From assembly GCA_964016885.1 (NCBI GenBank), contig OZ024741.1, positions 314,836,001 through 314,900,000 on the forward strand: DNA of 64,000 nucleotides, in the 5' to 3' direction. The stretch is from Eledone cirrhosa (lineage: Eukaryota). Below the pieces are notes generated by a model. The model was not told the DNA's origin. It saw only the letters and a program-made list of their open reading frames with translations, and did no database searches. How positions within the stretch are numbered: position 1 is the first letter of the stretch; each line of letters opens with the position of its first letter. Positions 18,136 to 49,498 of the stretch are shown piece after piece. Made by a program: the position numbers and the translations under genes.

Positions 18136-18138
<3 letters not shown>

Positions 18139-23300: not shown

Positions 23301-23801
23301 ACACAGAAAAGACGCAATGTTTAGACAAATTACAGAGGCAATAAACATAAAAGAATTACAACCAAAATTAAGTAGAAAATATGAGTGGAACAGCAACATC
23401 ACACCTTACAATTAAGGACAAAATGAAAACACACACACACATAGAACAAACAACCAACCAGTAACATGTAAATAAACAAATAAATAAATGAACATAAACA
23501 CACACAGACACCCGGATGTGGCGCATGCGCAGACTAAGCAAACAACACACACACAGAAAAAAAAATGGCGTAGGACAGAACAAAGGAGAGGCACAGAAAC
23601 AAAGAAAGGAATCCCCAGTCACTGAAGAGGTCACAGAGTGTGTGACGAAAGAACTATGACTATGTATAAACAACTATCTGGTTGTGGAACCAACCAACCA
23701 ACCAGAAATTTATAAATTTATTATAAATTTATTATAATAAATTGAAGTGAAAACAACTGGTGCGTGTGTTTCTTATTGGCAACATGACCCTCCCAAAGTA
23801 T

Positions 23802-23808
<7 letters not shown>
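20329..23808 (+). mobile_element. Penelope-like element family 1, longer direct copy, frameshifted
   Basis: SEIEKTFTRLRW, PTDKSGR, LYGLRKDHK, RPVC, RT and GIY-YIG motifs across ORFs 20346-23415; 3' UTR ends in (TA)n. Confidence 0.93.
23617..23661 (+). ncRNA. Minimal type I hammerhead ribozyme motif in a PLE 3' UTR
   Basis: Stem I agtca/tgact, CTGAAGA, stem II gtcaca/tgtgac, GAAA, CTA cleavage triplet. Confidence 0.75.
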
Positions 23809-23890
<82 letters not shown>

Positions 23891-24024
23891 TATATTGGAA
23901 AATGTGTGAAATCCTTGGTACAGTTGGCTATATTGAAAGAAAAAGAAAATAATGACTTTACCTTATATATATATATACATATCAGGTAAAGAGCAATTAA
24001 GTTAGTCCGGAGAAGGAAAAGGTG

Positions 24025-24085
<61 letters not shown>

Positions 24086-24086
24086 G

Positions 24087-24179
<93 letters not shown>

Positions 24180-24450
24180 AGATTTGAATGGATACAGTTT
24201 AGTTGAAAGGAATTTATTGACACGTGTTTCTATAACAGTTACATAACCTAAAACAGCTATCTACAAACTTTTAGTTATGCAGACATTCAATATTTCAATT
24301 TACTGTCATTTCATCAGAATAATATTACTGAGGACCTATTTAGTTTTTATAGAGAATATTAGGAAGGAGGGGTGAAGTTGTTAGAAGAATAGTTGAAGGA
24401 GTGGTTTTTCGATAGCAGTGAGAATTTATATTACAACACAACGGAAAATA

Positions 24451-24576
<126 letters not shown>

Positions 24577-24588
24577 TGTATATATGTA

Positions 24589-24649
<61 letters not shown>

Positions 24650-24713
24650 CCTTTGCCACCTTCGGTGTAGCGTAATTGCTTTTTACCTTATTTATTTATA
24701 TATATACATACAT

Positions 24714-25320
24714 GGTGGCTGCCAACTCGTTTTCGAGTACGGCCACTACTTTATATCCATGTAGGAGAACCCCTACCGATGCGCTGAACGAGTGTGACTT
24801 TTTAGTCCAGCCAGCGACTTGAAAACTCTGGTACAAACACTACACTTGTGACAATTATTGACACATAGTGCTGGGCCCATGGTACCATGTGATGACAAGT
24901 GCAGAGAGATCTCCAGATATAAAGCAATGCCTGTGCTGTGAAGCTTTTATAGTGAGCAAAGGAACTGCACAAAGCCAGTCCCACTCTCTTAACCAAGATG
25001 ATATTTACCAAAAAGAAGAACAAGTCAACATCATTGGATACCATCAGGGTTGCAGGTGTTATATCAGAGTTTTCCTTCTCTTAGAATTCTGCCTTGACAA
25101 AAGGCTAAGGGGTCATCTCTCCCAGTGATTTTGGATGGCCATTGACTCTTAAGAGCTCCTTTGCCCTTCGACAGGTTTTGTTTTTAGTCCTGCAGGATGT
25201 CCAAAGTCACCCTCCTCACCAAGAAACCTTGGTGGGGTTGCCAGTTTAGTCGCCAACGATCCCACCATGAGACAGGTTGTACTGGGATACATGTTACCAG
25301 TAGCACCAAGTGGTGACCTG
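24714..25320 (-). mobile_element. Short bipartite RTE-derived non-autonomous retroelement in (CATA)n
   Basis: Minus strand encodes a terminal C2H2 finger CSVCTRVFKSLAGLKSHTRSAHR* (24773-24853) typical of RTE ORF ends, with an RTE-like 5' UTR part. Absent from unit B. Confidence 0.65.
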
Positions 25321-25406
25321 ACATACATACATACATACATACATACATACATACATACATAAATACATACATACATACATACAATATATATATATATATA
25401 TATATA

Positions 25407-25468
<62 letters not shown>

Positions 25469-25475
25469 TATATAC

Positions 25476-25522
<47 letters not shown>

Positions 25523-25570
25523 TACAAATACAAATACATACATACATACATACATACATACATACATACA

Positions 25571-25671
<101 letters not shown>

Positions 25672-26021
25672 GGAAAAAATGAAACGAAATTCCATGTCCC
25701 ACTCTTAGTACGGCTGTTACTTAAATATAAGTATGTACACGTACATACATATATGTATACAGACGTACAGTAGTATGTATATATATATACATGCACACAT
25801 ATATATATGTACGTATGGATTCACCGAACATTTATTATAATGCTCGTTGTGTTTGTAAACAAACATCCCGTATTAAGCCGTAGTATCTAGCAACCATCGT
25901 TCCTCGTTTGTTCAACACTTACAAAGGAACGCTGTACTAGTTTCATATATATATATATATATAAGGTAAAGTGCAGTACACTTAGTCCGGAGGAGACAAA
26001 GGTGATTAGTTATGCAGATTA

Positions 26022-27511
26022 CACCGTGTAACAAAAACAAAATTTCTCTGTTCCTGGCTTGTAATCACTTTTTTTCAAAATAAATAATTGTTTCTACTTT
26101 AGGCACAAGGCCAGCAATTAACCAGTGCATTACTGGTACTTTATTTTATCGACCCTGTATGGATGAAAGGCAAAGTCAACCTCGGCGGGATTTGAACTCA
26201 GATCGTAAAGGGACGTAACTATGCTGGAAGGCATGGCGTCCGACCCTCTACCGATACTGCCAATCCAAATAAATAATAAAGTGCTATTAAACAGTTAAAA
26301 GTTTGGGTTTGTAAAAATTCTAAGCTATCCACTAGAATTATTTGTATGCTGGATTTTACGTTGTATGTAAGCTTAACTTTCTTATGTGAAATGATTTTTT
26401 TTTATATATGTTTCAGGTTAAATTAAAATTATTAAATAAAGAGTAATACATAAAGAAAATTATAAAAGTGCAATAAAGTATAACATTGTTAAAAAGTGGA
26501 TTAAAGAGATTTATTGATACTGGGGTACCAGAAAAAGTTCCTCACTTCCCAAACCAAAAAGAAGTCAATGACTTTGTCAGAGATATGTGTCTAACCAAGT
26601 CCAATGCAGAGCTATTCCTTTTCTGAATGAAGCAGTGGAACTTGGTCATGTGGGAGCCACTGGTTGATCCCAGGATTGTGCTCATACCGCCACTGCACAT
26701 TAAGTTGGGGTTGATGAAGCAGTTTGTGAAGGCTCTCAATCAAGAATCATCCGCTTTTAAGTACCTTCTTGAGTTCTTCCCCAAGTTATCTGAGGCCAAA
26801 ATCAAAGGTGGAATTTTTGTTGGACCTCAGATAAAGAAGGTGTTTGATTCTATCGAGTTCTCCAATAAGCTCAATAGGATTGAGAAAACAGCATGGAACT
26901 ATTTCATGTCAGTTGTTAAGGGCTTCCTGGGTAACTACTGACCTGAAAACTACCAGCAACTGGTGCAGGATCTGATAATGGCTTTTGGCGCCATGGGATG
27001 CAGGATGTCGCTTAAACTCCATATTCTGGACGCTCACCTGGAAAAATTCAAGGACAATATGGGCGCCTACTCAGAAGAACAAGGCGAACGATTCCACCAG
27101 ATGTGAAAGAGTTAGAGCGGAGGTAGCAGGGCCACTACATGAACAAATGATGGGGGACTATATCTGATTGCTAGTGCAGGAATGCGACCTGGACTACAAC
27201 CGCAAATCCAGAAAATCCCGTCATTTCTGACGTGTATAAGTTGCATTATAAGTGTTATTTGTTTTTACTTGTTTGCTTTTGATAAGCTTGTGTAATAAAA
27301 TAAATATATACTCTGTTGATTTAATTATATGTACTGATAAATTGAAAAAAAATGTGTTTTTTCTTGAAAAATATAAACATTTCGAAATAACAAACTCCTG
27401 ACAAAAGACCCAAACTTCTGATTAAATAATAGTATTTTTTGATAATAATGGGATATATCAAACCAGGAAATAATAAGTAAAGCAGGGGAACAATAAATAT
27501 ATTACACGGTG
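26022..27511 (+). mobile_element. Chapaev3-type (CMC superfamily) DNA transposon, deleted copy
   Basis: Termini caccgtgtaa/ttacacggtg, TTA target duplication, transposase motifs PPLHIKLGLMKQFVKAL, MSLKLH, SEEQGERFHQ. Confidence 0.85.
26085..26266 (-). mobile_element. tRNA-derived SINE family A nested in Chapaev3
   Basis: A box TGGCAGTATCGG and B box GTTCAAATCC on the minus strand. Confidence 0.85.
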
Positions 27512-27794
27512 TTACTAGCCATTATAGAGAGGTTAGTGTGGTCAATGCATATAAGTTGTTAGACCAGCGAGCCATGCAATTAGATGTAAAGAGAGATAGC
27601 TTAATAGTCGACGCGCACACACACACACACGCACGTACACACAAACACGCACGCACTCACACACACGTGTTTATTTGCTATGGGTAAATGTAAGAATATC
27701 AGTGATAAATAACGCAGAAACAGATAAGTACTGTAAAAGTTTTAATATTTCTGAGTGTAATTTTGCAGCTTATATTGATTATTACTTCCATATC

Positions 27795-28290
27795 AACATC
27801 ATCATCATCATCCTCATTCATTGCCCATCTTCCACGCTAGTATGAGTAAGATAGCCTATCCGTTTGTGAGGGATCAGGCTGGGATCCGTGATTCGCTCAC
27901 ACAGAATTCATTTTGGCTTGGTTTCTATGGATGGTTGCCCATACTTATGCCAAACACATTTAGAGTGTGTACTGGGTGCATTTTGCTGTGTCACCTACAC
28001 AACCACTTTATAGCATTGACTGGATGCTTTTTGCCGTGTCGCCTACACAACCACTTTACAGTGTGGACTGAGCGCTCGCTTTTGTCATGACACGTACATG
28101 ACAACTATGGTGTGGGGTGGGCTCTTTTGGTGTAGCTTCCGGGGATCCATTTATAGAGGAGGTTGAAAATTAGGAAGATACTTTGTGAAATTGGGGACGG
28201 AAGTATTGGGAAGGTTTATGGGAGGTTTATGGACGTGAGTATTGGGGAGGATTATTGGGGAGGTTGGGAGCCGTGTTACAAGCAATTGCA
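27795..28290. repeat. Interspersed repeat beginning at (CAT)n; also at about 40418-40900 and 53660-54150
   Basis: Three alignable copies at equivalent positions in the units; family not identified. Confidence 0.6.
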
Positions 28291-28316
28291 ATAATCTTAG
28301 CAGAGTTTGCAGCCTG

Positions 28317-28398
<82 letters not shown>

Positions 28399-29025
28399 AA
28401 TTAAAAATATAACTAAAAAAAAGTGTAATACCCAGAATCACTTATGACTGCAGTTCTGTTTACATGCTAACACATGAGCAAGTATGAGGGGCTCATTCTA
28501 GTGACATGGCTTTTAAAAAGAGGCGTGTTTGCATGATTTCAAACTAATAGAATATTATTATTAATATTAGAAAACCTCAGATTATATTTATTGTATTCAG
28601 CCATGTAGGGCGATTTTTTTTTCATTTGAATATTGCAAAGCCAGCCATAAATAGCTCGTATTTTGTCGTTAAATGTAAGAATATCACTAATAATTATAGT
28701 AGAACTGTTTCAAGGAAAGATTTCCGATAATAATATTCGATTCGTTTGCAATTTCTGATATATGCAATGCTTCTAATTATATTGATTATTATTTTCCATA
28801 AGGTCATAAGGCATTGTAAAATTGCTATTCTGGTTTTACATGAACTTAACATCTCTTTATGTAATATACTGTATCAATATATTATTTAATAGTTGTATGC
28901 AGACTGATTCGTTTATCAACACTTTAATCTTATAATTATTGATATGGTATAAAATTGATACCACATCTACAATTGTATGTAATTAATAATATCTTCAACA
29001 TTATCATATATACTGATATTTTCAG

Positions 29026-29160
29026 AATGCCCAGAAGGAAAGTATGGTTTATTATGTAATGGGACATGCCATTGTATGAACAACACTAACTGCGACAAGA
29101 GAACTGGATCTTGTTCAGATGGATGTGCTGCAGGTTATATTGGTGACAGCTGCCAACAAG
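29026..29160 (+). CDS. Exon 1: EGF-like 8-Cys repeat (MEGF10/Draper/SCARF type), internal coding exon
   Basis: ttttcag acceptor, AG|gtattt donor, 135 bp, phase 1-1; [45 protein letters not shown]. Confidence 0.9.
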
Positions 29161-29221
29161 GTATTTCCTAAAGATGCTAAGTATTTACAATATATATATA
29201 TGTATATATATATATATATGT

Positions 29222-29332
<111 letters not shown>

Positions 29333-29470
29333 AATACTATTTATAGTTATGTATATAGTATAAACAACTATAAACAGGAAGGTTTGTAATTTCCTACTAA
29401 CTTATTACCTACCAGTAAGAGAAATAGCTGAATGTATGAACATCAGATGTTTTACAGAGCAGAAAAATAA

Positions 29471-29820
29471 ATAAATTATACAATTATCATCAAAGTTGTG
29501 TTCAAATCATTTAATAGCTGACAATCGCTTATTCCAAACTCTCATTTGGGATCATCGGAGCGTTATCAATGTTTGCACATGTAATTAACCTCCTATTCAA
29601 CTGAACAGTAATATACATACATATATATTGATGTCGTAAATACGAAACTGTTGCTCACAACATCAATATATATGTATGTATGTTACTGTTCAGTTGAATA
29701 GGAGCTTAATTACATATGCAAACATTGATAATACCCCGATAATTCCAAATAAGAGTTTGGAAGAAACGATTGTCAGCTATTAAATGATTTGAACACAACT
29801 TTGATAATTGTATAATTTAT
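29471..29820. repeat. About 350-bp hairpin (about 160-bp arms), unit A copy
   Basis: ataaattatacaattatc...attgatgt is the reverse complement of acatcaat...gataattgtataatttat. Confidence 0.93.
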
Positions 29821-30108
29821 ATATATATATATATGTCTGTGTGTGTGCGTAAACGGGTACCTATAGTAGTTCCTAAACTTGAGTTTCTGCCACTTTTAAT
29901 GCAGCAGTAGGGTGCACTACACACTCTGTCCGCATATATTATGCAACAATGCATAATCGGTGCATATGGCTTCATCAGCAGTTTACGCCTAAAAAATAAT
30001 CAATCGATTGACAGAGTTCAACTCCAGTCCGTGATGGCTATGAATGCTTGTGACGGCCAGCACAGTAAAGTGATTAGCAACTGAGATCTGATACAATGCT
30101 GTAATCCG

Positions 30109-30235
<127 letters not shown>

Positions 30236-30449
30236 TAAAAGGAAAAGAAAATGCTGACAAATTGTTCCCAGTGAAAAATAGTTTAATTAGGAATAAGTAA
30301 AAGTTAGTAATAGTATTGGTTAGTATTCAGTTTTGGTTTTAAGTTTTACCGGATGCGCATTTCTAATGCTTTTCAAAAATAATTTTGAGATAGAGCGCCC
30401 GTGATGTTTGCTCGAATGTATATAAAATATATATATATATATATATTAT

Positions 30450-33400
30450 TAATTACTTTCTAATTAATTTCAACAATGAGTATTGGACCCGTTCAGATAG
30501 GAATAGAAACTTTGATATTACCATGGGATCATCGGACTCAGCGCAGGTCACCGATCTTCTGGGGATTTTTTTTCTTAAATATGGTAAATAGAAAACTGCC
30601 GGAGATTACCGGTGGTTTATATAGTGACGATATTTTATTTACGGTTGTCAAACATAGCAATACAGAATTAAATAGGGTTAAGAAAACTATAATTGAATTC
30701 TTAAAAAATTATGACCTTAAATTAGAATTTGAAAGTAGTACCAAAATAGTTAATTTCCTTCACGTTACCCTTAACTTAAACTCTGGTTTTTATTACCCTT
30801 TCTATAAGCCCAATGAAAACTTAAATTACGTTAACTATTACTCTAATCACCCTAAATCCGTGAAAAATGCAATAGACAATAGTGTACAGAAACGTATAAC
30901 TAGAATTTACGCTAATAAATCCATATATGATGAAAAAGCAGGATATTATAATGACGCGCTTAGAAAGGCATGTTATAAAAATAATATTGAATATATAGAT
31001 AATAATAATTTTAATTATAATCCTGATAAAAATAAGACTAACATATACAAACAAGATTCTAAAAATTATAATACAAACACCGTGAATAAATCGGCGAAAA
31101 AAATCAGAACTAAATCAGTTATATGGTTTACCCCCCAGCTTCTGTAGCAATAAAAACACCACTCGCAAATCTATTCTTTAAAGCTTTGGATAAATGCTTC
31201 CCCTATTCAACACAAATACCGGTCCATATTTAACAGACACACAATTAAGCTTTCTTATTCTACAACTATGAAAATGGCCCAGAACATCGCAAAAATAAAT
31301 AGTAGAATTCTAAATCATAATCAACAAACAATTAGCGATAATGAATATTAAGACTAGGAATAACAATAACATTGATCTCAACACAATCAATAGAACACTT
31401 CAAAGTACTAAAATGTTAATGTCAATTGTCCAATTTATAGTAATAACAATAAATCGAAATGTAATTGTAGAAATAGATCAAATTGCCCTCTGCAAAATAA
31501 TTGTCTGGATAGCAATCTGGTCTATAAATGCATCGTAAAAGCAAATAACATCACATACAACAACATTGATGCAACTTCATCGACATTTAAATTAAGATTT
31601 GCGAATCATAGATGCTCTTTTTCGAATCCTAATAGGAAATCTTCGACTTCTTTATCACAACTTATATGGTCGTTAAAAGACAAAAATTTAAAATACTCGA
31701 TTTCTTGGTCGAAGCTGTGTAATAGTCGAATATACTCGAATTCTTCAATATCACCTTACTGCAATCTCTGTACCATGGAGACCCTATTAATAATTACTAA
31801 TTATGATAATTTAATTAACAAAAAAAGTGAATTATTCTCAAATTGCCTTCATAAAGCTTCCTCTACATTCCAAGCCTCGCAAAAGGTCAAGAAAAAACAC
31901 TAAATAAATACGTTCTAATTTTTGACGTCTCGTATCAACTAAGTGTGTAAAATGTGATATTAACTTTTTTACTCATTTATGATTTGATAATTGTTAGATT
32001 AAGGGTTGTATATAAATATATTAACATATAGATTGTTAACACGATCTCTTGATGAATATGCATATTTTTTGATTGTGTAGATACATTTAATTTGTTTGGG
32101 ATTCTTGTATTTTTTTAAAATATATAGCTTATATGGTTGACAGATGTAATGAACCGTAAACAATTCTTGCTTTTATGTATTTATGTATTTATTCTATTGA
32201 AGTATGTTAGTTTTAAGATTCACGATGTTTGATTTATATATTTATATTTGTTTATATATATGTATGGTTTATGCGCCGCACAAAGTTTTCTCTTTCTCAT
32301 ATTTGCAGACACTTTAAATATGATACTATACTACTATATAGATCCTTAAAAGTTTTCTTGTATTTTAAATTATATAGCTTAAATATTTGGCACTTATATG
32401 ATTGCAAACAATTTATTTATTTATTTTGAATCTGGTTCGTTTCCTTATGATTCATGAAATTTTTATAGTATTACAGGATCCTAAGATACAATAATTAATC
32501 TAAAACCTTAATTCTAACAATATTAACAGTACGTTATTCATTCTATCATATTATATTGTGTTATATATAACTGATTAATATCGTCTTGAACTTTAGACAA
32601 TATACTTTTTGTATATATTTGGACAAATGCATATATCAAATTTAATAATAACTTTTTAAAGTTTAATTGTAAGGCCTTTAGATGCTTTAGGGCATTCTAA
32701 TTGTTGATTTAAAATGTTTAAAGTTATAACTGTAATTATTTTCTAAATTATATAGTGATAATTATTTTAGTATGGGAAAATAATATAAGATAACATAATT
32801 TAATATGGTTTAACTTCGTGTGGATGAAAATACTAAGTTTCTTTCTCATGTTTGAAAATACTTTAAATATGATTTTATAAATTAAATATATTAGTATACT
32901 TTAATATTAATATAGAAATTTATAAACTTTTATAGCCTGAAATATTATATCTTTAGTTTAATCCATTATACTTAGCTAACATAAGAAATTTGAAATTTAA
33001 CGGTCAGCCGGATAAGTTTGGATATATATGGAGTATAAATAATTGTTAGTATATTTCTTATTAATTGAGGAATTAAACCCTCATATAATTACACCCAGAT
33101 ATATTTAATATTTAGATAGATGGATACTTCTAGATAATTCAAAGATTCGAGTTTACTCTTTCACAATGCTATGCCCAAATGTATATTCATGTATTTATCT
33201 ATGCTTTATCTATAAAAATTATTCCCCTGTGTCTCTCTATCCTTGATCAATTCTCTTTTGCTTTCTATACTTCTAGTAACTATATTTTTTCCTCATCTGT
33301 TTCACTATGTCTTTCTTATTTCTTTCTTCTTTCTTCAATAATTTAAATTATTTCAATCTCTAAAAGTTATGTAAATTTCTATTATGTATTTTTAAGCTTT

Positions 33401-33648
33401 CTCACACGCACCTTCTGTATTATATGTAAGTTTTTTCATGTCTCAATCTTAAGGTATATAAATATTGAGCTTGTCATATCATATTCACTACCATGACTGA
33501 ATCTTAACCATCTACTATGTCAGGGTATGTCATGCATCATCTTATTTTATCTGATGAGAACGTACTGTTGAAGATAGCTCAGTACCCCTGAAATATGTAT
33601 AATAAAATATACTTGATCACACGAATGTCTATTTTTGTTAATATTCTG
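30450..33648 (+). mobile_element. Penelope-like element family 2, 5'-truncated, with a long AT-rich 3' UTR (unit A)
   Basis: FDITMGSSDSAQV, GGLYSDD, VNFLHVTLNL, SNHP, IWFTP, CNCRNRSNCPLQNNCL..LVYKC, CNLC..E..II, CLHK (ends 31883). Confidence 0.88.
33543..33609 (+). ncRNA. Type I hammerhead ribozyme motif at the 3' end of PLE family 2
   Basis: Stem I tattttat/ataaaata, CTGATGA, stem II core gtactg/cagtac (base of stem mismatched), GAAA, ATA triplet. Confidence 0.65.
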
Positions 33649-33653
33649 AAATA

Positions 33654-34950
33654 ACGGGACGTCGCCTGGCGGACCGATTCACTGAGCACCTCCGGGATAT
33701 TCGTCTCGGTGGTAGTTCCCCCATCGCCCGGCACTTTGGTGGCCCTGGACATTCCGCACGCCATCTCACAGTCTGTGGCCTACTCCAATGCCACGGAACA
33801 CCCGCCAATCGCCTTAGAGTCGAACAAAGAAAAATCTTCATCTTACAGACCCACACTCCCCCCGGCATGAACTCCCCACCTTTATTGCTTTAGCCTTCGA
33901 CCGCCCCCCTCCCCCCACACTTATCCTCCACTAACACACCCCTCCTTTTCACCGCCCACCCCACAACTAACAATACTAACAGCTCCACTCCACCCCTCAT
34001 CCCACCACCCTTCCCCAACTAACATACTAACATCCATCCCTTCTTCTCCTTCCCCCCTCCTTATCACACGCACACACCCACCGGCACATATATACACGCG
34101 CTCACACTAAACACACACCCTACTACCACCACTAACCCTCACCCCCACACCACCATCCCAACACCCCGCAACTAACCTCACTAACACCCCCTGACCCCAA
34201 GCACACGAACACACGCACCCAATTACACCAACTCTACACACCCTACCACCACTAACCCCCACTTACACCTGCATTCAACCCTTTCCCCACCTCCCGTATA
34301 CCAACACCCACTAACACCCCCTTCATTAAACTACACACACACCAGTACACCACATTTCCTCCATAGAACTACACACACCCTTCTCTCCCCGCTCCACCCA
34401 CACCCTCGCTCCACACTCACTCATCCCACTAACACCTCTACTAATACACACACACACCCTCCTCACTCCAACTTTCACACCTACCCATCCTCGCCCCTTT
34501 ATCACTCCACCCGACTGCTGCTATGCCCTCTGACCACCTCCCAGCACAAACAGACACACAGCACTCCCACCGCTTGACCACTTCCTGTTGCGCGCGCACC
34601 CCACATCTCTCCTCTTCCGACCATCTCTTCATGGAATACTCGTATGTGGAACTTGACCACCATGGAATCTACTAAACATCATAGGAATTTACCAACATTT
34701 CAACCACCCTCTTACGGAATCACCTATATAACTCACCCACACACACGCCCAAAAAAATGTTTTTCTCCCACACGCCACCTACGCCCACAACACGCTTAAA
34801 CCCCACACACACGTGCTTTCCACCACATATTTACACCCTCAGCCTCCTGATTCCTCTCCCCCCACCCCTCTATCCACACACGCACAGACACTCCGACCCC
34901 CCCCCCCCACATCTTCCTGAAATGCAACCCCGTTCTTCCCCCAACGCTTA

Positions 34951-34990
<40 letters not shown>
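33654..34990 (+). mobile_element. Penelope-like element family 3 (GIY-YIG end plus C/A-rich 3' UTR), cut by the duplication breakpoint
   Basis: 33654..33893 translates TGRRLADRFTEHLRDIR..PIARHF..GHS..LTVCGL..RLRVEQRKIFILQTHTPPGMN; not in the supplied ORF track. Confidence 0.85.
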
Positions 34991-34994
<4 letters not shown>

Positions 34995-37174
34995 TCATAT
35001 TTACCTTCTTGACAGACAACTAATCATATTTACCTTCAGATGTATGTGACAGCACGGAGGACCTCCTCAGTAGAATCGGCGTGAGTAACCGATCTAGGGA
35101 CCTAACAAACTGCATAATAGGCAGTATGGATGTTGTGTCCCTGTATCCATCTATTGACGTGGATTTTGCTGTGGAGAAATGCGTAGAAATGATCAGTGAG
35201 AGCAAGGTTGAGTTCCGTGGGATTGATACCAGTGAGCTGGGACTCCTACTTAAGCTTACATATAGTAATAATTACCTAGACACATATGACCTTAGGAACC
35301 TGTGCCCTACAAGACCAGCAAGAGGCAGACCACCTACCATTACCTCAATGGCCAAGAAAACCCACACAGATAGATGGAACGGGTGGACCAGAGCCAATCG
35401 GACACCCGAAAACCACGATGAACTGAAGAAAATGATTGCACATGCGGTAGGGGCCAGCATAAAACTAACCCTTAAGGAACATATGTTCAAATTTAATGGA
35501 AAAACATATGCCCAAGAAGAAGGAGCAGCCATTGGTGTTAGCATTGCAGGCGACATAGCTAACTTATACATGGTATGGTGGGACAGTAGACTTAAATTTA
35601 AACTTAAAGAACAATTAGAAGACCCCTTAACCCTGATAATGTACTCCCGCTACGTTGATGATATAAACATCGTAGTTAAGACACCGCCACTAGAGAACAG
35701 TCAGGAACTAGAGAAAAACACAATGGAAAGCATCCAGCAAATAGCAAACTCCATCCACCAGAGCATTAGAGTTACTATAGACTACCCAAGTAAACACCCC
35801 AACCATTGATTACCTGTACTAGACACAGAGCTCTGGTTAGATACCATTAACAACAAAAAAACAAATCCTCCATTCCCATTATGCCAAACCCATGACTTCC
35901 AAACATCTGATCCACCGAAACTGGGCCGTTTCGGACCATACCAAAATCAACATACTGATTGCGGATTTGGTACGAGTGATGAGAAATGTGTCCCGCATGT
36001 GCAACCCCGAAGAACTAGAGAGACACATACAACATTTCATCCACGGTATGCAGTTCTCTGGCTACAATCAGAGGGATAAAATCAGAGATAAAATCAGATA
36101 AAATAAATATAGAGGAGCCAGAACCAAATGGGAAAAAATGGTAAATAATGACATAAATGGGACCTGCCCCTTGTATAGGAGCAAATTTTGGAATAGAATA
36201 GAAAGAACTAGGTATCATGGTATGATAGCAATAAATACCAGAGTGTAATGTTCATCGATACAACCCCTAGAGGTGAATTAGCTTACAAATTTAGAAGGGC
36301 CCTAAATAAACATAAACTCAATATTAAGATAGTAGAAAGACCAGGTACCTCCGTAAAAACACTTATTAGCAAGACATACCCTTTTCAAAGACCCTCCTGT
36401 ATAGATAAGAAATGTATAACCTGTAAAATAAGTCCCCATATTAACTGTAAAACTAGAAATGTAGTGTATAGCATAAGATGTACTGAAGGACAATGTAGAG
36501 ACAAAAATATAGTGTACATAGGTGAGACAGCTCGTAGTGCAGGGGAACGGATAAATGAACACTGGCGAGACCTTCAAGATAGTAAAGAATCATCTGTACT
36601 CTACCAACATGCTAAAATAGAACACAAGGGTAAATTAGAGAACATAGAAATAAAAGTAGAATCTACACACAGAAAAGACGCAATGTTTAGACAAATTACA
36701 GAGGCAATAAACATAAAAGAATTACAACCAAAATTAAGTAGAAAATATGAGTGGAACAGCAACATCACAACTTACAATTAAGGACAAAATGAAAACACAC
36801 ACACACATAGAACAAACAACCAACCAGTAACATGTAAATAAACAAATAAATAAATGAACATAAACACACACAGACACCCGGATGTGGCGCATGCGCAGAC
36901 TAAGCAAACAACACACACACAGAAAAAAAAATGGCGTAGGACAGAACAAAGGAGAGGCACAGAAACAAAGAAAGGAATCCCCAGTCACTGAAGAGGTCAC
37001 AGAGTGTGTGACGAAAGAACTATGACTATGTATAAACAACTATCTGGTTGTGGAACCAACCAACCAACCAGAAATTTATAAATTTATTATAAATTTATTA
37101 TAATAAATTGAAGTGAAAACAACTGGTGCGTGTGTTTCTTATTGGCAACATGACCCTCCCAAAGTATAACAATA
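34991..37174 (+). mobile_element. Penelope-like element family 1, third copy (start of unit B)
   Basis: ORFs 35081-36781 are nearly identical to 21654-23415. The first 46 bp are the reverse complement of 20329..20374. Confidence 0.93.
36983..37027 (+). ncRNA. Minimal hammerhead ribozyme motif, PLE family 1
   Basis: Identical to 23617..23661. Confidence 0.75.
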
Positions 37175-37318
37175 TATATATATATATATTGGAAAATGTG
37201 TGAAATCCTTGGTACAGTTGGCTATATTGAAAGAAAAAGAAAATAATGACTTTACCTTATATATATATATACATATAAGGTAAAGAGCAATTAAGTTAAT
37301 CCGGAGAAGGCAAAGGTG

Positions 37319-37365
<47 letters not shown>

Positions 37366-37379
37366 GTATATATATATAT

Positions 37380-37499
<120 letters not shown>

Positions 37500-37548
37500 A
37501 TATTTATATATACATATATATATATATATGTATATATGTATATATATG

Positions 37549-37583
<35 letters not shown>

Positions 37584-37709
37584 ATAACCTTTGCCACCTT
37601 CGGAGTAGCGTAATTGCTCTTTACCTTATTTATTTATATATATACATACATACATACATACATACATACATACATACATACATACATACATACATACATG
37701 CATACATAC

Positions 37710-37767
<58 letters not shown>

Positions 37768-38106
37768 GGAAAAAATGAAACGAAATTCCATGTCCCACAC
37801 TTAGTACGGCTGTTACTTAAATATAAGTATGTACACGTACATACATATATGTATACAGACGTACAGTAGTATGTATATATATATATACATGCACGCATAT
37901 ATATATGTATGTATGGATTCACCGAACATTTATTATAATGCTCGTTGTGTTTGCAAACAAACATCCCGTATTAAGCCGTAGTATCTAGCAACCATCGTTC
38001 CTCGTTTGTTCAACACTGACAAAGGAACGCTGTACTAGTTTCATATATATATATATAAGGTAAAGAGCAGTACACTTAGTCCGGAGAAGACAAGTTATGC
38101 AGATTA

Positions 38107-40069
38107 CACCGTGTAACAAAAACAAAATTTCTCTGTTCCTGGCTTGTAATCACTTTTTTTCAAAATAAATAATTGTTTCTACTTTAGGCACAAGGCCAGC
38201 AATTAACCAGTGCATTACTGGTACTTTATTTTATCGACCCTGTATGGATGAAAGGCAAAGTCAACCTCGGCGGGATTTGAACTCAGATCGTAAAGGGACG
38301 TAACTATGCTGGAAGGCATGGCGTCCGACCCTCTACCGATACTGCCAATCCAAATAAATAATAAAGTGCTATTAAACAGTTAAAAGTTTGGGTTTGTAAA
38401 AATTCTAAGCTATCCACTAGAATTATTTGTATGCTGGATTTTACGTTGTATGTAAGCTTAACTTTCTTATGTGAAATGATTTTTTTATATATGTTTCAGG
38501 TTAAATTAAAATTATTAAATAAAGAGTAATACATAAAGAAAATTATAAAAGTGCAATAAAGTATAAAATTGTTAAAAAGTGGATTAAAGAGATTTATTGA
38601 TACTGGGGTACCAGAAAAAGTTCCTCACTTCCCAAACCAAAAAGAAGTCAATGACTTTGTCAGAGATATGGTTCTAACCAAGTCCAATGCAGAGCTATTC
38701 GTTTCCTGAATGAAGCAGTGGAACTTGGTCAAGGAGGAAGTACAGGTGATAAGTCAGAGAAGTTGACACAAACCTTTCTCAGGCTTTTACACTCTTAGGG
38801 ATGGCCTCTGCTTCTGCCATGACGTGCCTGGATTGTCTGACGTTATTGGGGTGCCGTTTGTGCCAAAGGAGTGGTGGCTATTTATATACAGCTCCACCAC
38901 AAGTTTGAAGGCTGTCCTCCTCCACAATGGAAACAAGTTCCCGCCACTGCCCCTAGCTCATTCAGTCTGCCTGAAGGAAGATTACTACAGTGTGAAAGTC
39001 CTCTTGGAAGCTCTGCAATACAACCTGTACAATTGGGAAATTATTGGAGACTTCAAGATGGTGGCTTTCCTGCTTGGACTCCAAGGAGGCTTTATCAAAT
39101 TCCAATGCTTGCTCTGCCTTTGGGACAGCAGAACCACCTCTGACCACTACAAAAGAAAGAACTGGGAGCAGCGAACAGAATTTGTAGTTGGGACCCGGAA
39201 CGTCATGTGTGAGCCACTGGTTGATCCCAGGATTGTGCTCATACCGCCACTGCACATTCAGTTGGGGTTGATGAAGCAGTTTGTGAAGGCTCTCAATCAA
39301 GAATCATCCGCTTTTAAGTACCTTCTTGAGTTCTTCCCCAAGTTATCTGAGGCCAAAATGAAAGGTGGAATTTTTGTTGGACCTCAGATAAAGAAGGTGT
39401 TTGATTCTATCGAGTTCTCCAATAAGCTCAATAGGATTGAGAAAACAGCATGGAACTGTTTCATGTCAGTTGTTAAGGGCTTCCTGGGTAACTACTGACC
39501 TGAAAACTACCAGCAACTGGTGCAGGATCTGATAAAGACTTTTGGCGCCATGGGATGCAGGATGTCGCTTAAACTCCATATTCTGGACGCTCACCTGGAA
39601 AAATTCAAGGACAATATGGGCTCTTACTCAGAAGAACAAGGCGAACGATTCCACCAAGATGTGAAAGAGATAGAGCGGAGGTAGCAGGGCCACTACATGA
39701 ACAAATGATGGGGGACTATATCTGATTGCTAGTGCAGGAATGCGACCTGGACTACAACCGCAAATACAGAAAATCCCGTCATTTCTGACGTGTATAAGTT
39801 GCATTATAAGTGTTATTTGTTTTTACTTGTTTGCTTTTGATAAGCTTGTGTAATAAAATAAATATATACTCTGTTGATTTAATTATATGAACTGATAAAT
39901 TGAAAAAAAATGTGTTTTTTCTTGAAAAATATAAACATTTCGAAATAACAAACTCCTGACAAAAGACCCAAACTTCTGATTAAATAATAGTATTTTTTGA
40001 TAATAATGGGATATATCAAACCAGGAAATAATAAGTAAAGCAGGGGAACAATAAATATATTACACGGTG
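38107..40069 (+). mobile_element. Chapaev3-type DNA transposon, longer copy with a decayed transposase
   Basis: Same termini and TTA duplication. ORF 38824..39498 has SLKAVLLHNGN, GDFKMV..LLGLQGGF.K..C.LCLWDSR, PPLHI.LGLMKQFVKAL. Confidence 0.88.
38171..38352 (-). mobile_element. tRNA-derived SINE family A nested in Chapaev3 (duplicate)
   Basis: Matches 26085..26266. Confidence 0.85.
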
Positions 40070-40937
40070 TTACTAGCCATTATAGAGAGGTTAGTGTGGT
40101 CAATGCATATAAGTTGTTAGACCAGCGAGCCATGCAATTAGATGTAAAGAGAGATAGCTTAATAGTCGGAATTTCGTAGGGAGGAGACTAATTTAAATTC
40201 AAATGCACAGATATACACACACGCGCGCGCGCGTACGCGCACACACACACACGCACGCACACACAAACACGCACGCACTCACACACAAGTGTTTATTTGT
40301 TGTGGGTAAATGTAAGAATATCAGTCATAAATAACGCAGAAACAGACAAGTACTGTAAAAGTTTTAATATTTCTGAGTGTAATTTTGCAGCTTATATTGA
40401 TTATTACTTCCATATCAACATCATCATCATCATCCTCATCATTGCCCATCTTCCACGCTAGTATGAGTAAGATAGGCTATCCGTTTGTGAGGGATCAGGT
40501 TGGGATCCCTGATTCGCTCACACAGAATTCATTTTGGCTTGGTTTCTATGGATGGTTGCCCATACTTATGCCAAACACATTTAGAGTGTGTACTGGGTGC
40601 ATTTTGCTGTGTCGCCTACACAACCACTTTATAGCATTGACTGGGTGCTTTTTGCCGTGTCGCCTACACAACCACTTTACAGTGTGGACTGAACGCTCGC
40701 TTTTGTCATGACACGTACATGACAACTATGGTGTGGGGTGGGCTCTGTTGGTGTAGCTTCCGGGGATCCATTTATAGAGGAGGTTGAAAATTGGGAAGAT
40801 GCTTTGTGAAATTGGGGACGTAAGTATTGGGAAGGTTTATGGGAGGTTTAAGGACGTGAGTATTGGGGAGGATTATTGGGGAGGTTGGGAGCCGTGTTAC
40901 AAGCAATTGCAATAATCTTAGCAGAGTTTGCAGCCTT

Positions 40938-41003
<66 letters not shown>

Positions 41004-41631
41004 AATTAAAAATATAACTAAAAAAAAGAGTAATACCCAGAATCACTTATGACTGCAGTTCTGTTTACATGCTAACACATGAGCAAGTATGAGGGGCTCA
41101 TTCTAGTGACGTGGCTTTTAAAAAGAGGCGCGTTTGCATAATTTCAAACTAATAGAATATTATTATTAATATTAGAAAACCTCAGATTATATTTATTGTA
41201 TTCAGCCATGTAGGGCGATTTTTTTTCATTTGAATATTGCAAAGCCAGCCATAAATAGCTCGTATTTTATCGTTAAATGTAAGAATATCACTAATAATTA
41301 TAGTAGAACTGTTTCAAGGAAAGATTTCTGATAATAATATTCGATTCGTTTGCAATTTCTGATATATGCAATGCTTCTAATTATATTGATTATTATTTTC
41401 CATAAGAGGTCATAAGGCATTGTAAAATTGCTGTTCTGGTTTTACATGAACTTAACATCTCTTTATGTAATATACTGTATCAATATATTATTTAATAGTT
41501 GTATGCAGACTGATTCGTTTATCAACACTTTAATCTTATAATTATTGATATGGTATAAAATTGATACCACATCTACAATTGTATGTAATTAATGATATCT
41601 TCAACATTATCATGTATAATGATATTTTCAG

Positions 41632-41766
41632 AATGCCCAGTAGGAGAGTATGGTTTATTATGTAATGGGACATGCCATTGTATGAACAACGCTAACTGCG
41701 ACAAGAGAACTGGATCTTGTTCAGATGGATGTGCTGCAGGTTATATTGGTGACAGCTGCCAACAAG
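41632..41766 (+). CDS. Exon 2: EGF-like 8-Cys repeat
   Basis: Canonical AG/GT, 135 bp; [45 protein letters not shown]. Confidence 0.9.
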
Positions 41767-41795
41767 GTATTTCCTAAAGATGCTAAGTATTTACA

Positions 41796-41924
<129 letters not shown>

Positions 41925-42057
41925 AATATTTATAGTTATGTATATAGTATAAACAACTATAAACAGGAAGGTTTGTAATTTCCTACTAACTTATTACCAG
42001 TAAGAGAAATAGCTGAATGTATGAACATCAGATGTTTTACAGAGCAGGAAAATAAAT

Positions 42058-42399
42058 AAATTATACAATTATCAAAGTTGTGTTCAAATCATTTAATAGC
42101 TGACAATCGTTTCTTCCAAACTCTCATTTGGAGTCATCGGAGCATTATCAATGTTTGCACATGTAATTAACCTCCTATTCAACTGAACAGTAATATACAT
42201 ACATATATATTGATGTTGTAAATACGAAACTGTTGCTCACAACATCAATATATATATGTATGTATGTTACTGTTCAGTTGAATAGGAGTTTAATGATATG
42301 TGCAAACATTGATAATACCCCGATGATTCCAAATGAGAGTTTGGAAGAAACGATTGTCAGCTATTAAATGATTTGAACACAACTTTGACAATTGTATAA

Positions 42400-42401
<2 letters not shown>
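42058..42401. repeat. About 345-bp hairpin, unit B copy
   Basis: Same inverted arms as 29471..29820. Confidence 0.93.
42094..42147 (-). ncRNA. Hammerhead-like motif with CCGATGA core (mirror at 42313..42366 +; solo copy at 51877..51930 +)
   Basis: taatgct CCGATGA ctccaaa tgagag tttggaa GAAAC gatt GTC agctatta. Confidence 0.55.
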
Positions 42402-42476
<75 letters not shown>

Positions 42477-43179
42477 ATATGTATATATATGCATATATAT
42501 ATATATATACACACACATGTATATAATAAGAAAATTTGAAGTACTTTCAGATGTTAAAGTTCTTTAATGATAATGCTGTGATACATATTTAAATGACGTC
42601 AGTGGCCACAATTTTCTGTGTGCCCAGTGTTGTGACATCATCAGACAGCTTTTTACATAATAAGGTTATGTTCCCGAGGCAATCTAATTTGAATCAACAA
42701 GGGAACGGACAAAGCCGGTGTTCTTGATTTCTTCGCCCGATACCTTGTGAGTTCAGATTTACGCCACCGGTTTCCAATGGCGCAAGTCCGAAGGAAGTTG
42801 ACCATCCACTATCTCAAAACTCTACGAAACTCGCCTAGGCAGGTCCCCTCACACCGCAACGAAACAATCAACCCCCAACGCGGTCTGTAATATGACACGA
42901 TTATAGTTTACTTCTAGTCGCCCTGCTAGTGGCAGTTGAACGAAACCTAGTGGTGGCGGCAGTGTATGAGTTTCAATAGACCTCGACACTACCCCTAAAT
43001 TATGCATGGACAATATAATTGACCATCACCCGCTAAGAGAATATAAACTTAAACTTAATGCTAGATATTATGGTTTCATAGAAGAAATTATGATTGAAAA
43101 TTAGAAAGTAAGAGATTACAAGCTAAAATCTTAAATTGAAGTAAATAAAGCAAAAATAAATAAATTAAAAGAATATATA

Positions 43180-43364
43180 TAATTGTTTCTACTTTTTGGC
43201 ACACGGGCAGCAATTGTCTAGTGCATTACTGGTACTTTATTTTATTGACCCCGTAAGGATGAAAGGCAAAGTTAACCTCGGCGTGAATCAGAATGGCAAC
43301 GGCCGTAAATCTATGCGTCAAAGCATGGCGTCCGACCCCCTACCGATACTGCCAATCCACCGCC
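43180..43364 (-). mobile_element. tRNA-derived SINE family A
   Basis: Head GGCGGTGGATTGGCAGTATCGG on the minus strand plus the central domain. Confidence 0.85.
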
Positions 43365-44242
43365 ATATATATATATATATTTGTATATATGTATAGTTAT
43401 GTAATAAAGAACATAAGATAATTATTTCATTTACCAGTGGTTTCTTGAAAGCAAACAAATTTGCCTTCAGTCAGCAGAATGAAAAAATCCTGGTGTATTT
43501 ATTGACAGTGGATTTGAAAAACCTAATAAGCTATGTAACCTACATAGAGAGCTCTTTTTTCATGGACCTTTCCGACGGAATTACTTCACTAACGTATGTA
43601 TATATATGTATAATAACTAATAACTAATAAATAGGGAGATTTTAAATTATAGTAAGAAGTTTTGAACGTGGGATCAATATTACAGATGTATTATCCATTT
43701 ATTAAATGATAATACCGTACAGTAGAACGGAGGGTAAATTATAGTATGAAAAGTAGTAATTAGGCAAATAATTAGTTAATATCTTCTTCTATCACATGCA
43801 TCAAAACAAAACAAAACCTACATAGATGCAAAATGTGAGAGGAGACATTTATGAGAAAAAATATACGAGGAAGATAAACTGAAACCGGTTCCATCTCCGC
43901 GTACTCAATAGGTAATGTAAAATACACTCCCAGAGTATACACATAGTTATTCGCTTCAATGCAACACACGTAAACGGGTACCTATAGTAGTTCCTAAACT
44001 TGAGTTTCTGCCACATTTAATGCAGCAGTAGGGTGCACTACACACTCTGTCCGCATATATTATGCAACAATGCATAATCGGTGCATATGGCTTCATCAGC
44101 AGTTTTCGCCTGAAAAATAATCAATCGATTGACAGAGTTCAACTCCAGTCCGTGATGGCTATGAATGCTTGTGACGGCCAGCACAGTAAAGTGATTAGCA
44201 ACTGAGATCTGATACAATGCTGTAATCCGATATATATATATA

Positions 44243-44328
<86 letters not shown>

Positions 44329-44544
44329 TAAAAGGAAAAGAAAATGCTGACAAATTGTTCCCAGTGAAAAATAGTTTAATTAGGAATAAGTAAAAGTTAG
44401 TAATAGTATTGGTTAGTATTCAGTTTTGGTTTTAAGTTTTACCGGATGCGCATTTCTAATGCTTTTCAAAAATAATTTTGAGATAGAGCGCCCGTGATGT
44501 TTGCTCTAATGTATATAATATATATATATATATATATATATTAT

Positions 44545-47500
44545 TAATTACTTTCTAATTAATTTCAACAATGAGTATTGGACCCGTTCAGATAGGAATA
44601 GAAACTTTGATATTACCATGGGATCATCGGACTCAGCGCAGGTCACCGATCTTCTGGGGATTTTTATCTTAAATATGGTAAATAGAAAACTGCTGGAGAT
44701 TACCGGTGGTTTATATAGTGACGATATTTTATTTACGGTTGTCAAACATAGCAATACAGAATTAAACAGGGTTAAGAAAACTATAATTGAATTCTTAAAA
44801 AATTATGACCTTAAATTAGAATTTGAAAGTAGTACCAAAATAGTTAATTTCCTTCACGTTACCCTTAACTTAAACTCTGGTTTTTATTACCCTTTCTATA
44901 AGCCCAATTAAAACTTAAATTACGTTAACTATTACTCTAATCACCCTAAATCCGTGAAAAATGCAATAGACAATAGTGTACAGAAACGTATAACTAGAAT
45001 TTACGCTAATAAATCCATATATGATGAAAAAGCAGGATATTATAATGACGCGCTAAGAAAGGCATGTTATAAAAATAATATTGAATATATAGATAATAAT
45101 AATTTGAATTATAATCCTGATAAAAATAAGACTAACATATACAAACAAGATTCTAAAAATTATAATACAAACACCGTGAATAAATCGGCGAAAAAAATCA
45201 GAACTAAACCAGTTATATGGTTTACCCCCCAGCTTCTGTAGCAATAAAAACACCACTCGCAAATCTATTCTTTAAAGCTTTGGATAAATGCTTCCCCTAT
45301 TCAACACAAATACCGGTCCATATTTAACAGACACACAATTAAGCTTTCTTATTCTACAACTATGAAAATGGCCCAGAACATCACAAAAATAAATAGTAGA
45401 ATTCTAAATCATAATCAACAAACAATTAGCGATAATGAATATTAAGACTAGGAATAACAATAACATTGATCTCAACACAATCAATAGAACACTTCAAAGT
45501 ACTAAAATGTTAATGTCAATTGTCCAATTTATAGTAATAACAATAAATCGAAATGTAATTGTAGAAATAGATCAAATTGCCTTCTGCAAAATAATTGTCT
45601 GGATAGCAATCTGGTCTATAAATGCATCGTAAAAGCAAATAACATCACATACAACAACATTGATGCAACTTCATCGACATTTAAATTAAGATTTGCGAAT
45701 CATAGATGCTCTTTTTCGAATCCTAATAGGAAATCTTCGACTTCTTTATCACAACTTATATGGTCGTTAAAAGACAAAAATTTAAAATACTCGATTTCTT
45801 GGTCGAAGCTGTGTAATAGTCGAATATACTCGAATTCTTCAATATCACCTTACTGCAATCTCTGTACCATGGAGACCCTATTAATAATTACTAATTATGA
45901 TAATTTAATTAACAAAAACTGTGAATTATTCTCAAATTGCCTTCATAAAGCTTCCTCTACATTCCAAGCCTCGCAAAAGGTCAAGAAAAAACACTAAATA
46001 AATACGTTCTAATTTTTGACGTCTCGTATCAACTAAGTGTGTAAAATGTGATATTAATTTTTTTACTCATTTATGATTTGATAATTGTTAGATTAAGGGT
46101 TGTATATAAATATATTAACATATAGATTGTTAACACGATCTCTTGATGAATATGCATATTTTTTGATTGTGTAGATACATTTAATTTGTTTGGGATTCTT
46201 GTATTTTTTAAAAATATATAGCTTATATGGTTGACAGATGTAATGAACCGTAAACAATTCTTGCTTTTATGTATTTATGTATTTATTCTATTGAAGTATG
46301 TTAGTTTTAAGATTCACGATGTTTGATTTATATATTTATATTTGTTTATATATATGTATGGTTTATGCGTCGCACACGATCCTATTCGACAAACGTTTTC
46401 CACTTAACTTGATGTTAAACTTCAATTATAATTTTACTAACAATGTTTTTTATTATTTATTTATTATATGTATATGGATCACTAATATCGTCTCGAGTTC
46501 CGAACAGAATACTCTGTATGTGTTTGGAAAAGTGTGAATATCTGGTTTAATAACAGGCTTCTAGCTACATGTATAAGTACTCTAGATACTTAAGGACATT
46601 CTAGTGTTATAATTGTTAAATATTTTCTAAATTATATAACGATTATTATTTTTTAATTTAATTAAATTCGGGTTACCTTCGGGTCGATGAAAATCTTAAG
46701 TTTTCTCTTTCTCATATTTGCAGACACTTTAAATATGATACTATACTACTATATAGATCCTTAAAAGTTTTCTTGTATTTTAAATTATATAGCTTAAATA
46801 TTTGGCACTTATATGATTGCAAACAATTTACTTATTTATTTTGAATCTGGTTCGTTTCCTTATGATTCATGAAATTTTTATAGTATATATGTATTACAGG
46901 ATCCTAAGATACAATAATTAATCTAAAACCTTAATTCTAACAATATTAACAGTAACTTATTCATTCTATCATATTATATTGTGTTATATATAACTGATTA
47001 ATATCGTCTTGAACTTTAGACAATATACTTTTTGTATATATTTGGACAAATGCATATATCAAATTTAATAATAATTTTTTAAAGTTTAATTGTAAGGCCT
47101 TTAGATGCTTTAGGGCATTCTAATTGTTGATTTAAAATGTTTAAAGTTATAACTGTAATTATTTTCTAAATTATATAGTGATAATTATTTTAGTATGGGA
47201 AAATAATATAAGATAACATAATTTAATATGGTTTAACTTCGTGTGGATGAAAATACTAAGTTTCTTTCTCATGTTTGAAAATTTTTTAAATATGATTTTA
47301 TAAATTAAATATATTAGTATACTTTAATATTAATATAGAAATTTATAAACTTTTATAGCCTGAAATATTATATCTTTAGTGTAATCCATTATACTTAGCT
47401 AACATAAGAAATTTGAAATTTAACGGTCAGCCGGATAAGTTTGGATATATATGGTGTATAAATAATTGTTAGTATATTTCTTATTAATTGAGGAATTAAA

Positions 47501-48072
47501 CCCTCATATAATTGCACCCAGATATATTTAATATTTAGATAGATGGATACTTCTAGATAATTCAAAGATTCGAGTTTACTCTTTCACAAAGCTATGCCCA
47601 AATGTATATTCATGTATTTATCTATGCTTTATACTATAAAAATTATTCCCCTGTGTCTCTCTATCCTTGATCAATTCTCTTTTGCTTTCTATACTTCTAG
47701 TAACTATATTTTTTCCTCATCTGTTTCTCTCTGTCTTTCTTATTTCTTTCTTCTTTCTTCAATAATTTAAATTATTTCAATCTCTAACAGTTATGTAAGT
47801 TTCTATTATGTATTTTTAAGCTTTCTCACACGCACCCTCTGTATTATATGTAAGTTTTTTCATGTCTCAATCTTAAGGTATATAAATATTGAGCTTGTCA
47901 TATCATATTCACTACCATGACTGAATCTTAACCATCTACTATGTCAAGGTATGTCATGCATCATCTTATTTTATCTGATGAGAACGTACTGTTGAAGATA
48001 GCTCAGTACCCCTGAAATATGTATAATAAAATATACTTGATCACACGAATGTCTATTTTTGTTAATATTCTG
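44545..48072 (+). mobile_element. Penelope-like element family 2 (unit B), hammerhead motif at 47967..48033
   Basis: Duplicate of 30450..33648 with about 320 extra bp near 46378-46696. Confidence 0.88.
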
Positions 48073-48077
48073 AAATA

Positions 48078-49455: not shown

Positions 49456-49498
<43 letters not shown>

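Follow-up and report, generated by a model that had tools for sequence, protein, structure and literature searches.

A chimeric tandem-duplication junction at the inner end of a Penelope-like palindrome, with a possible origin in two template switches

In the human DUP-NML-INV/DUP rearrangements at PLP1, one template switch runs between LINEs of opposite orientation and another proceeds by microhomology (PMC6902434). The choice between an inversion allele and two switches was ambiguous in three PLP1 patients, and the inversion allele was favoured there (PMC6902434). In the DUP-TRP/INV-DUP class, inverted repeats down to ~0.9 kb at 98% identity are found, and the second junction shows 1-9 bp of microhomology in 14 of 24 samples (PMC11293582). 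In the usual form of Penelope-like elements (PLEs), an inverted, 5'-truncated copy adjoins the 5' end and one of the two ends bears a tail (PMC8557442, PMC3846280, PMC11167929). Within this group, a CX2-5CxxC linker marks the Neptune and Nematis clades and is absent in Penelope and Poseidon (PMC8557442). We describe a locus in a 64-kb window (the whole stretch of DNA analysed) where the inner end of a PLE palindrome coincides with the junction of a tandem duplication. The junction appears to be a real chimera of the known rearrangement class. It is most likely the product of a double template switch and not the record of a standing flipped isomer of the palindrome, as the preliminary description had proposed.

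In a masked self-comparison of the window, a 2.15-kb arm is present three times. Arm A (18193..20328, minus strand) is an inverted, 5'-truncated Penelope-like copy with an RT core, a C-terminal GIY-YIG, a 3' UTR/pLTR and one TGA stop. Arm B (21654..23808, plus strand) opens the first unit of the duplication, and arm C (35037..37171, plus strand) has an A-type junction and B-type alleles. The spacer between A and B (20329..21653, plus strand, 1,325 bp) is the 5' part of the element's own ORF; it is contiguous with arm B, into which it reads in frame, and contains frameshifts. It holds an E.EK.F..LRW motif, an Asn/Thr-rich stretch and DKSG. The E.EK.F..LRW motif stands at the spacer's first codons, the same place as in 15 of 20 long relatives. 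The low-complexity stretch at 20420-21070 is rich in Asn, Thr and Gln, with ~220 codons from LRW to PFN against 42-74 in 15 relatives, and recalls the Asn-rich inserts of rotifer Penelopes (PMC3846280). A tail of ~55 bp (18138..18192, minus strand) is present in arm A only and extends the short ORF beginning (MTLPKYNN...) that lies in the pseudo-LTR. Both ends of the insertion adjoin a (TA)n target microsatellite, at 18098..18137 on the left and 23806..23888 on the right. As a head-to-head insertion of a Penelope-like element into (TA)n, the palindrome is ordinary, and it has the usual form, including the inverted 5'-truncated copy, a tail at one end and the ORF start in the pLTR. We dropped the tail as a guide to ancestral orientation because it may sit at either end (PMC3846280, PMC8557442). 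Just left of the insertion site, a near-perfect 111-bp hairpin (17910-18020, 95%) lies between two (TA)n tracts.

The arms encode the RT core and then the GIY-YIG, with RYVDD and VVY..YIG motifs in that order. Pfam matched the arm ORF to RVT_1 below cut-off only (E 5e-4) and gave no match to a GIY-YIG domain. A homolog search returned 80 RT relatives, the best being a predicted Octopus vulgaris protein at 72%, and a second search (32 matches) added four more O. vulgaris proteins at 58-74% and one at 61%. The host species is probably an octopus. The pLTR contains a hammerhead-like core (CUGANGA, stem II, GAAA) at 23616..23662 (plus), and further cores lie at 36982 (plus) and at 18384 (minus), where GAAA has become GATA. 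These motif calls follow what we take to be the hammerhead core consensus. The candidate type I hammerhead has the core motif, stem I and stem II, and its fold z is about 0; in Rfam the pLTR gave no hammerhead match, only chance matches of the hairpin type. Hammerhead ribozymes in PLE pLTRs are described in the available text of bioRxiv 10.64898/2026.07.22.740005. Following the description in PMC8557442, we assigned the CCHH-type endonuclease residues to two Cys in VVYSIRCTEGQCRDKNIVYIG and to the His in ERINEH and LYQH. The linker CIDKKCITC upstream of the GIY-YIG reads CX4CxxC, which fits CX2-5CxxC and points to a putative Neptune/Nematis-type element. The endonuclease is C-terminal, and not N-terminal as in Naiad/Chlamys elements. 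A reading of the TGA codons as selenocysteine, as in some Naiads, was rejected, because the TGAs differ between the arms and the one in B and C replaces a conserved Arg. Compared with the Neptune/Nematis-type head-to-head PLEs in the available text of PMC8557442, PMC3846280 and PMC11167929, the element shares the domain order, the linker, the inverted truncated copy, the one-ended tail, the ORF start in the pLTR, the (TA)n target and the hammerhead-like core. It differs in its tail (~55 bp versus 30-40), in its long Asn/Thr-rich N-terminal stretch, and in that its arms would have served as substrate of a host duplication, which the available PLE descriptions in these three papers do not include.

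The duplication consists of unit 1 (21654..34990, plus strand, 13,337 bp) and unit 2 (34991..49493, plus strand, 14,503 bp), the latter ending in (CA)n at 49460-49493. To the right of the junction, arm C through 46376 pairs with arm B through 32282 in the same order, with five large indels, and to the left 32283-34954 pairs with 46698-49459. Because the flanks on both sides match in order, the junction joins the two copies of a tandem duplication head to tail. Excluding microsatellites and 10 bases around each gap, 145 of 10,603 sites (1.37%) differ between the units; a looser filter gives 157 of 10,937. Since the arms are more diverged (A versus B, 46 substitutions in ~2,130 bp, 2.2%), the duplication is younger than the insertion. 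Unit divergence is uneven, with chi-square P values of 0.0004 in 1-kb windows, 0.0008 in 500-bp windows and 0.07 in 300-bp windows. A candidate stretch of error-prone synthesis beside the (CA)n break, with 16 differences in a 343-base window, was a mis-aligned poly-C tract and became ordinary after realignment under the stricter of these two filters.

The junction reads from (CA)n through 46 inverted bases of the spacer into the B-type arm C. Direct base-by-base comparison bears out the reverse-complement identity given in the preliminary description: 34991-35036 (minus strand) equals the spacer start at 20329-20374 letter for letter. When both strands of the whole 64-kb window were searched, the 46-mer occurred once per strand, and the 40-bp sequence across the border of 46-mer and arm occurred solely at 35017 (plus) and 20309 (minus). 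An internal repeat with a period of 29 bp reduces the 46-mer to ~29 independent bases, which is still far beyond chance. On the distal side lies (CA)18 (34955..34990), with AC microhomology at 34990-34991. The other break had been placed in (CA)n, and the tract at 34955-34990 is indeed homologous to the one at 49460-49493; arm C also matches the flank of arm B for ~13 kb up to that tract, in line with the downstream flank said to be shared by the two plus-strand copies. At the head-to-head junction, two 28-nt copies lie 1 base apart (20328..20384, plus strand), and this pair predates the large duplication because arm C has 1.6 copies. A second, unrelated element relic (33650..34954, plus strand) retains a GIY-YIG C-half and a C-rich 3' UTR, and the distal break falls in a (CA)n tract inside that UTR; from its motifs we take the relic to be Penelope-like. 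The relic is cut off at (CA)n in unit 1 and runs on to ~49928 in unit 2, where it has a hammerhead-like core at 49803. A special local fold at the junction was considered and dropped, as the fold was nothing unusual (z=+1.0). On the strand of the host gene, the junction makes a branch-point-like CTAAT, a pyrimidine tract and CAG within 35001-35090. A GTGAGT donor stands 41 bases after this acceptor-like site, which lies at 35039, and the putative cryptic exon between the two would throw out the reading frame.

A three-way table of the arms over 2,161 columns gave 37 substitutions in A only, 9 in B only and 9 in C only, and arm C therefore combines the junction of A with the body of B. The changes were polarised with 41 of the 80 relatives, of which 39 were counted and two shown apart. 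B and C share a CGA>TGA stop (22423/35807; column 771) and an insertion of 18 bp that brings in a TAA in frame (22703-22720/36088-36105). The stop is derived because 36 of 39 homologs have Arg at its site, and the insertion is derived because it breaks an ORF that stays open in A. Along the arm, F>Y at column 532 (F in 37 of 39 homologs) is the earliest change that is clearly derived and common to B and C. Several other sites at which B equals C are A's own mutations. At column 165, A carries R where 33 of 39 homologs have S, column 273 (T in 21 of 39 homologs) was counted likewise, and the TGA at column 552 and the change of GAAA to GATA in the hammerhead-like core also belong to A. Not every B=C site is thus a shared derived defect of the kind reported earlier for the third copy; the stop and the 18-bp insertion are, and these sites are not. 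Between A and B/C, 6 of 28 changes are synonymous, against a neutral expectation of 23%. Given this neutral ratio, the arms were alike at insertion and have since decayed to 2.2%, and an origin of the arms from two different active masters was rejected.

Differences between A and B are spread evenly along the arm, indicating that arm exchange is rare. The longest identical run is 166 bp, which is expected somewhere in the arm (P=0.65 for the longest run anywhere). It occupies the first, inner 166 bp, with P about 0.02 for that position, and C differs from both A and B at two sites within it, 35071 and 35078. No excess of A=C sites was seen at the inner arm end in the three-way table. An A-only site limits the switch from A to B only if it is older than the duplication, therefore A's own changes cannot serve as bounds; the first A-only site (column 167) was discarded as a hard bound for this reason. 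In a likelihood scan, the switch falls most likely in columns 0-166, that is 35037-35202. The 95% bounds are columns 435, 471 and 680 for three assumed duplication ages, and a hard bound is set by the B=C change F>Y at column 532 (before 35568). Relative to an inner-end crossover, one placed uniformly along the arm reaches a likelihood ratio of 0.10-0.18. The three-way comparison that had been suggested for placing the crossover thus puts the switch most likely near the inner arm end, and both the switch and the break lie within ~0.2 kb of that end. Over the last 981 bp of the arm B and C differ at 1 site, versus 17 over the first 1,177 (P=0.004; 22831-23805 vs 36214-37171), which may reflect either a mosaic of haplotypes or conversion between the tandem units in the recent past. 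Together with the uneven unit divergence, it calls for later gene conversion or two haplotypes. At the second join the perfect overlap is AC, a 2-bp microhomology. When mismatches are allowed, the join ranks among the top 41 of 1,313 inverted-spacer positions (3%) for likeness to (CA)n, which gives modest support to a join that may have been guided by homeology.

The junction shows an exchange between the two inverted arms, since A's junction stands on a B-type arm and flank. On its own it is no proof of a flipped isomer. The best fit is a single replication-repair event that included two template switches, to which we give about an even chance; this and the weights below are judgements and not computed values. 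The arms would first have drifted ~0.7% apart. A fork copying leftwards through arm B would then have switched, within the last ~170 bp, to the matching position in the inverted arm A. The switch would have reversed the direction of copying and taken it across A's junction and 46 bp of spacer, after which AC microhomology would have allowed a jump to (CA)n 13 kb downstream and a second copying of the unit. Read from the other strand the path would be equivalent, and a flipped spacer would never be required. We infer all of these steps from the structure, which is what the assembly displays. The preliminary description had offered template switching across the palindrome as its other option, and we favour it because one short excursion accounts jointly for a break and a switch that both lie close to the inner end of the arm. 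The age order is also right, with the arms (2.2%) more diverged than the units (1.37%). The identity of A and B over the inner 166 bp counts against two switches, as it suits crossover with gene conversion, unlike a template switch; so do the uneven unit divergence and a microhomology of only 2 bp. A flipped allele followed by simple duplication also gives an identical junction. Recombination between the arms would have inverted the 1.3-kb spacer either before the duplication, on another haplotype, or after it, in the upstream copy, and a simple microhomology-mediated tandem duplication would have broken 46 bp inside the spacer and in (CA)n. This history yields exactly the observed junction, the inner identity of A and B with C apart at two sites is as after a crossover with conversion, and the mosaic unit divergence suits exchange between two homologs. 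Inversion alleles between inverted repeats underlie the same pattern in humans (H2 at PLP1, 42% frequency; PMC6902434, available text). However, two independent events must then both have happened close to the inner end of the arm: a crossover at the place favoured by the likelihood scan and a break in the first 46 of 1,325 spacer bases. There is no sign of other arm exchange over 2 kb, and a second palindrome in the unit, which is a weak control as it is older with arms of 89-91%, has the same orientation in both copies. We consider arm recombination unlikely on balance. What stands of the earlier proposal is the arm exchange visible at the junction; the flipped isomer itself is one of two histories with the same junction and is mildly disfavoured by the sequence.

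An assembly artefact carries a real chance, which we judge somewhat lower than that of arm recombination. Two haplotypes could have been set in tandem by linking a contig that ended in (CA)n to one that began inside the palindrome, or the spacer at 20.3-21.7 kb could be mis-oriented. The unit divergence of 1.4% with several large indels is near the heterozygosity of O. vulgaris (>1.1%; PMC6472339, available text) and is mosaic, as between alleles. The two ends are in sequence prone to contig breaks, inverted PLE structures are a known source of assembly difficulties (PMC8557442), and the switch is located in the only long run of identity between the arms. However, the window has zero N, a 2-base overlap cannot drive an overlap-based mis-join, and the join lies at a position that ranks in the top 3% for likeness to (CA)n. 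Older copies of the same exon, 4-8% diverged, show that the gene expands in this way, and the resolution of long interrupted microsatellites suggests long reads. Retrotransposition of arm C is very improbable. A family master already carrying the junction would have inserted in (CA)n, or 13 kb of flank would have been carried along by transduction. Host DNA that includes introns can be mobilised by PLEs between pLTRs (PMC3846280, available text), and both break regions are within PLE sequence. Yet C shares with B nonsense mutations that arose after insertion and 11 kb of non-element flank, stands exactly in tandem register, and has neither a pLTR nor a target duplication at the far end. The junction peptide occurred in 0 of 112 retrieved relatives, a weak negative because none is closer than 80% to its query.

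Each duplication unit carries one in-frame EGF-like exon of 135 bp, of phase 1-1, with intact ag/gt and 8 Cys. The unit 1 copy lies at 29026..29160 (plus strand), and the unit 2 copy (41632..41766, plus strand) differs from it by 3 substitutions, all non-synonymous. An older copy (51086..51220, plus strand) is 4.3-4.9% from the two young copies over exon and flanks, and the oldest (62561..62695, plus strand) is ~8% from the others, flanks included. The EGF-like label follows Pfam matches below cut-off, and a search for exon homologs returned 1 candidate, none scored, so that no homolog was identified in it. The host gene is presumably akin to MEGF/scavenger-receptor-like EGF-repeat proteins. 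Expansion of symmetric (phase 1-1) exons is a known mode for EGF-repeat proteins, and the array shares with it one 135-bp in-frame exon per unit and copies of graded age. Since the older copies are 4-8% diverged versus 2.2% between the arms, growth of the exon array had begun by the time the element inserted, and the palindrome accounts for at most one exon duplication. The suggestion that the palindrome triggered the exon-unit duplication is thus possible for this one duplication and does not extend to the two older copies. Changed codons among the four exons are mostly non-synonymous (3/3, 7/9 and 16-17 of 17-18) with all Cys kept, and these small numbers would be compatible with diversifying selection as a possibility. 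One E-for-K change is common to exon copies 2 and 3 relative to copies 1 and 4. A 124-bp repeat (15564, 27670, 40292, 53539) was rejected as a repeated exon, having no splice acceptor and stops in two copies.

Several other repeats lie in the window. The second palindrome in the unit (344 bp; 29474-29817 and 42059-42401) has the same orientation in both units and shows ~2x the average unit divergence. As a control for arm exchange it was set aside; it is not flipped, and its 13 substitutions are not polarisable. At 54399-59601, older palindromes are nested (54794-55632; 56861-57830) with outer arms at 82-87%, and GIY-YIG-like remains in opposite directions lie around 57236 and 57692. On sequence features, these palindromes are probably more head-to-head PLE insertions. 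A decayed element with RT and GIY-YIG-like parts lies within the unit (30234-32282 and 44327-46376; 0.74% between copies). An ORF remnant at 38732-39498 and 26480-27230, which we take to be transposase-like, had no Pfam match, and unit 1 is without 470 bp of it. Non-LTR retrotransposon ORFs occupy 178-3018, 4257-9270 and 10495-13461, among them a 1,139-aa open frame at 4257-7676, after which comes a related partial copy, 89% identical. A dispersed 140-190 bp repeat (9636-9775, 26077-26267, 38162-38352, 43172-43359, 60010-60187, 63932-64000) resembles the common octopus SINE.

If real, the junction is a clean and datable case of the inverted arms of a retroelement joining in a host exon duplication, by a mechanism known mainly from human disease alleles and read here in an invertebrate germ line. 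It predicts an excess of duplication breakpoints at the inner junctions of PLE palindromes wherever a genome has many of these. Seen at one locus in one assembly, the case leaves existing principles as they stand: the PLE form is usual, rearrangements of this class have been described, and growth of the exon array predates the element. Among the matches listed in the open-access literature, we found no report of a PLE palindrome at a host duplication breakpoint, which is a weak negative. A broader view would make the head-to-head PLE a built-in rearrangement cassette whose spacer toggles orientation in the population, whose inner junction seeds in-frame exon duplications, and whose palindromes drive repeat growth in cephalopod EGF-repeat genes. 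We regard this as improbable.

The closest comparison is with the PLP1/MECP2 rearrangements of the DUP-NML-INV/DUP and DUP-TRP/INV-DUP classes, as given in the available text of PMC6902434 and PMC11293582. The assembly has the DUP-NML-INV/DUP layout, with 20329-20374 doubled and inverted, 20375-21653 single and 21654-34990 doubled. The junction types also agree: the chimeric arm C lies in the inverted repeats, and the other junction has an AC overlap at a position in the top 3% for homeology. Only 46 bp of the second spacer orientation are present in the window. Judged by these structural features of the assembly, the case would work like the two human classes. In both systems one junction is hidden in a pair of inverted repeats as a chimeric repeat, and the other has short microhomology, 1-9 bp in the human cases and 2-bp AC here. 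Retroelements in opposite orientation are possible repeats at PLP1/MECP2 and are the actual repeats in the window, and both systems share the ambiguity between an inversion allele with simple duplication and two template switches. The window differs from PLP1/MECP2 in that the inverted piece is only 46 to ~210 bp and the event is old (1.4% divergence) and known from one assembly only. It also differs in that both repeats come from a single retroelement insertion and lie only 1.3 kb apart, and it is this substrate, two inverted arms from one insertion, that is slightly new.
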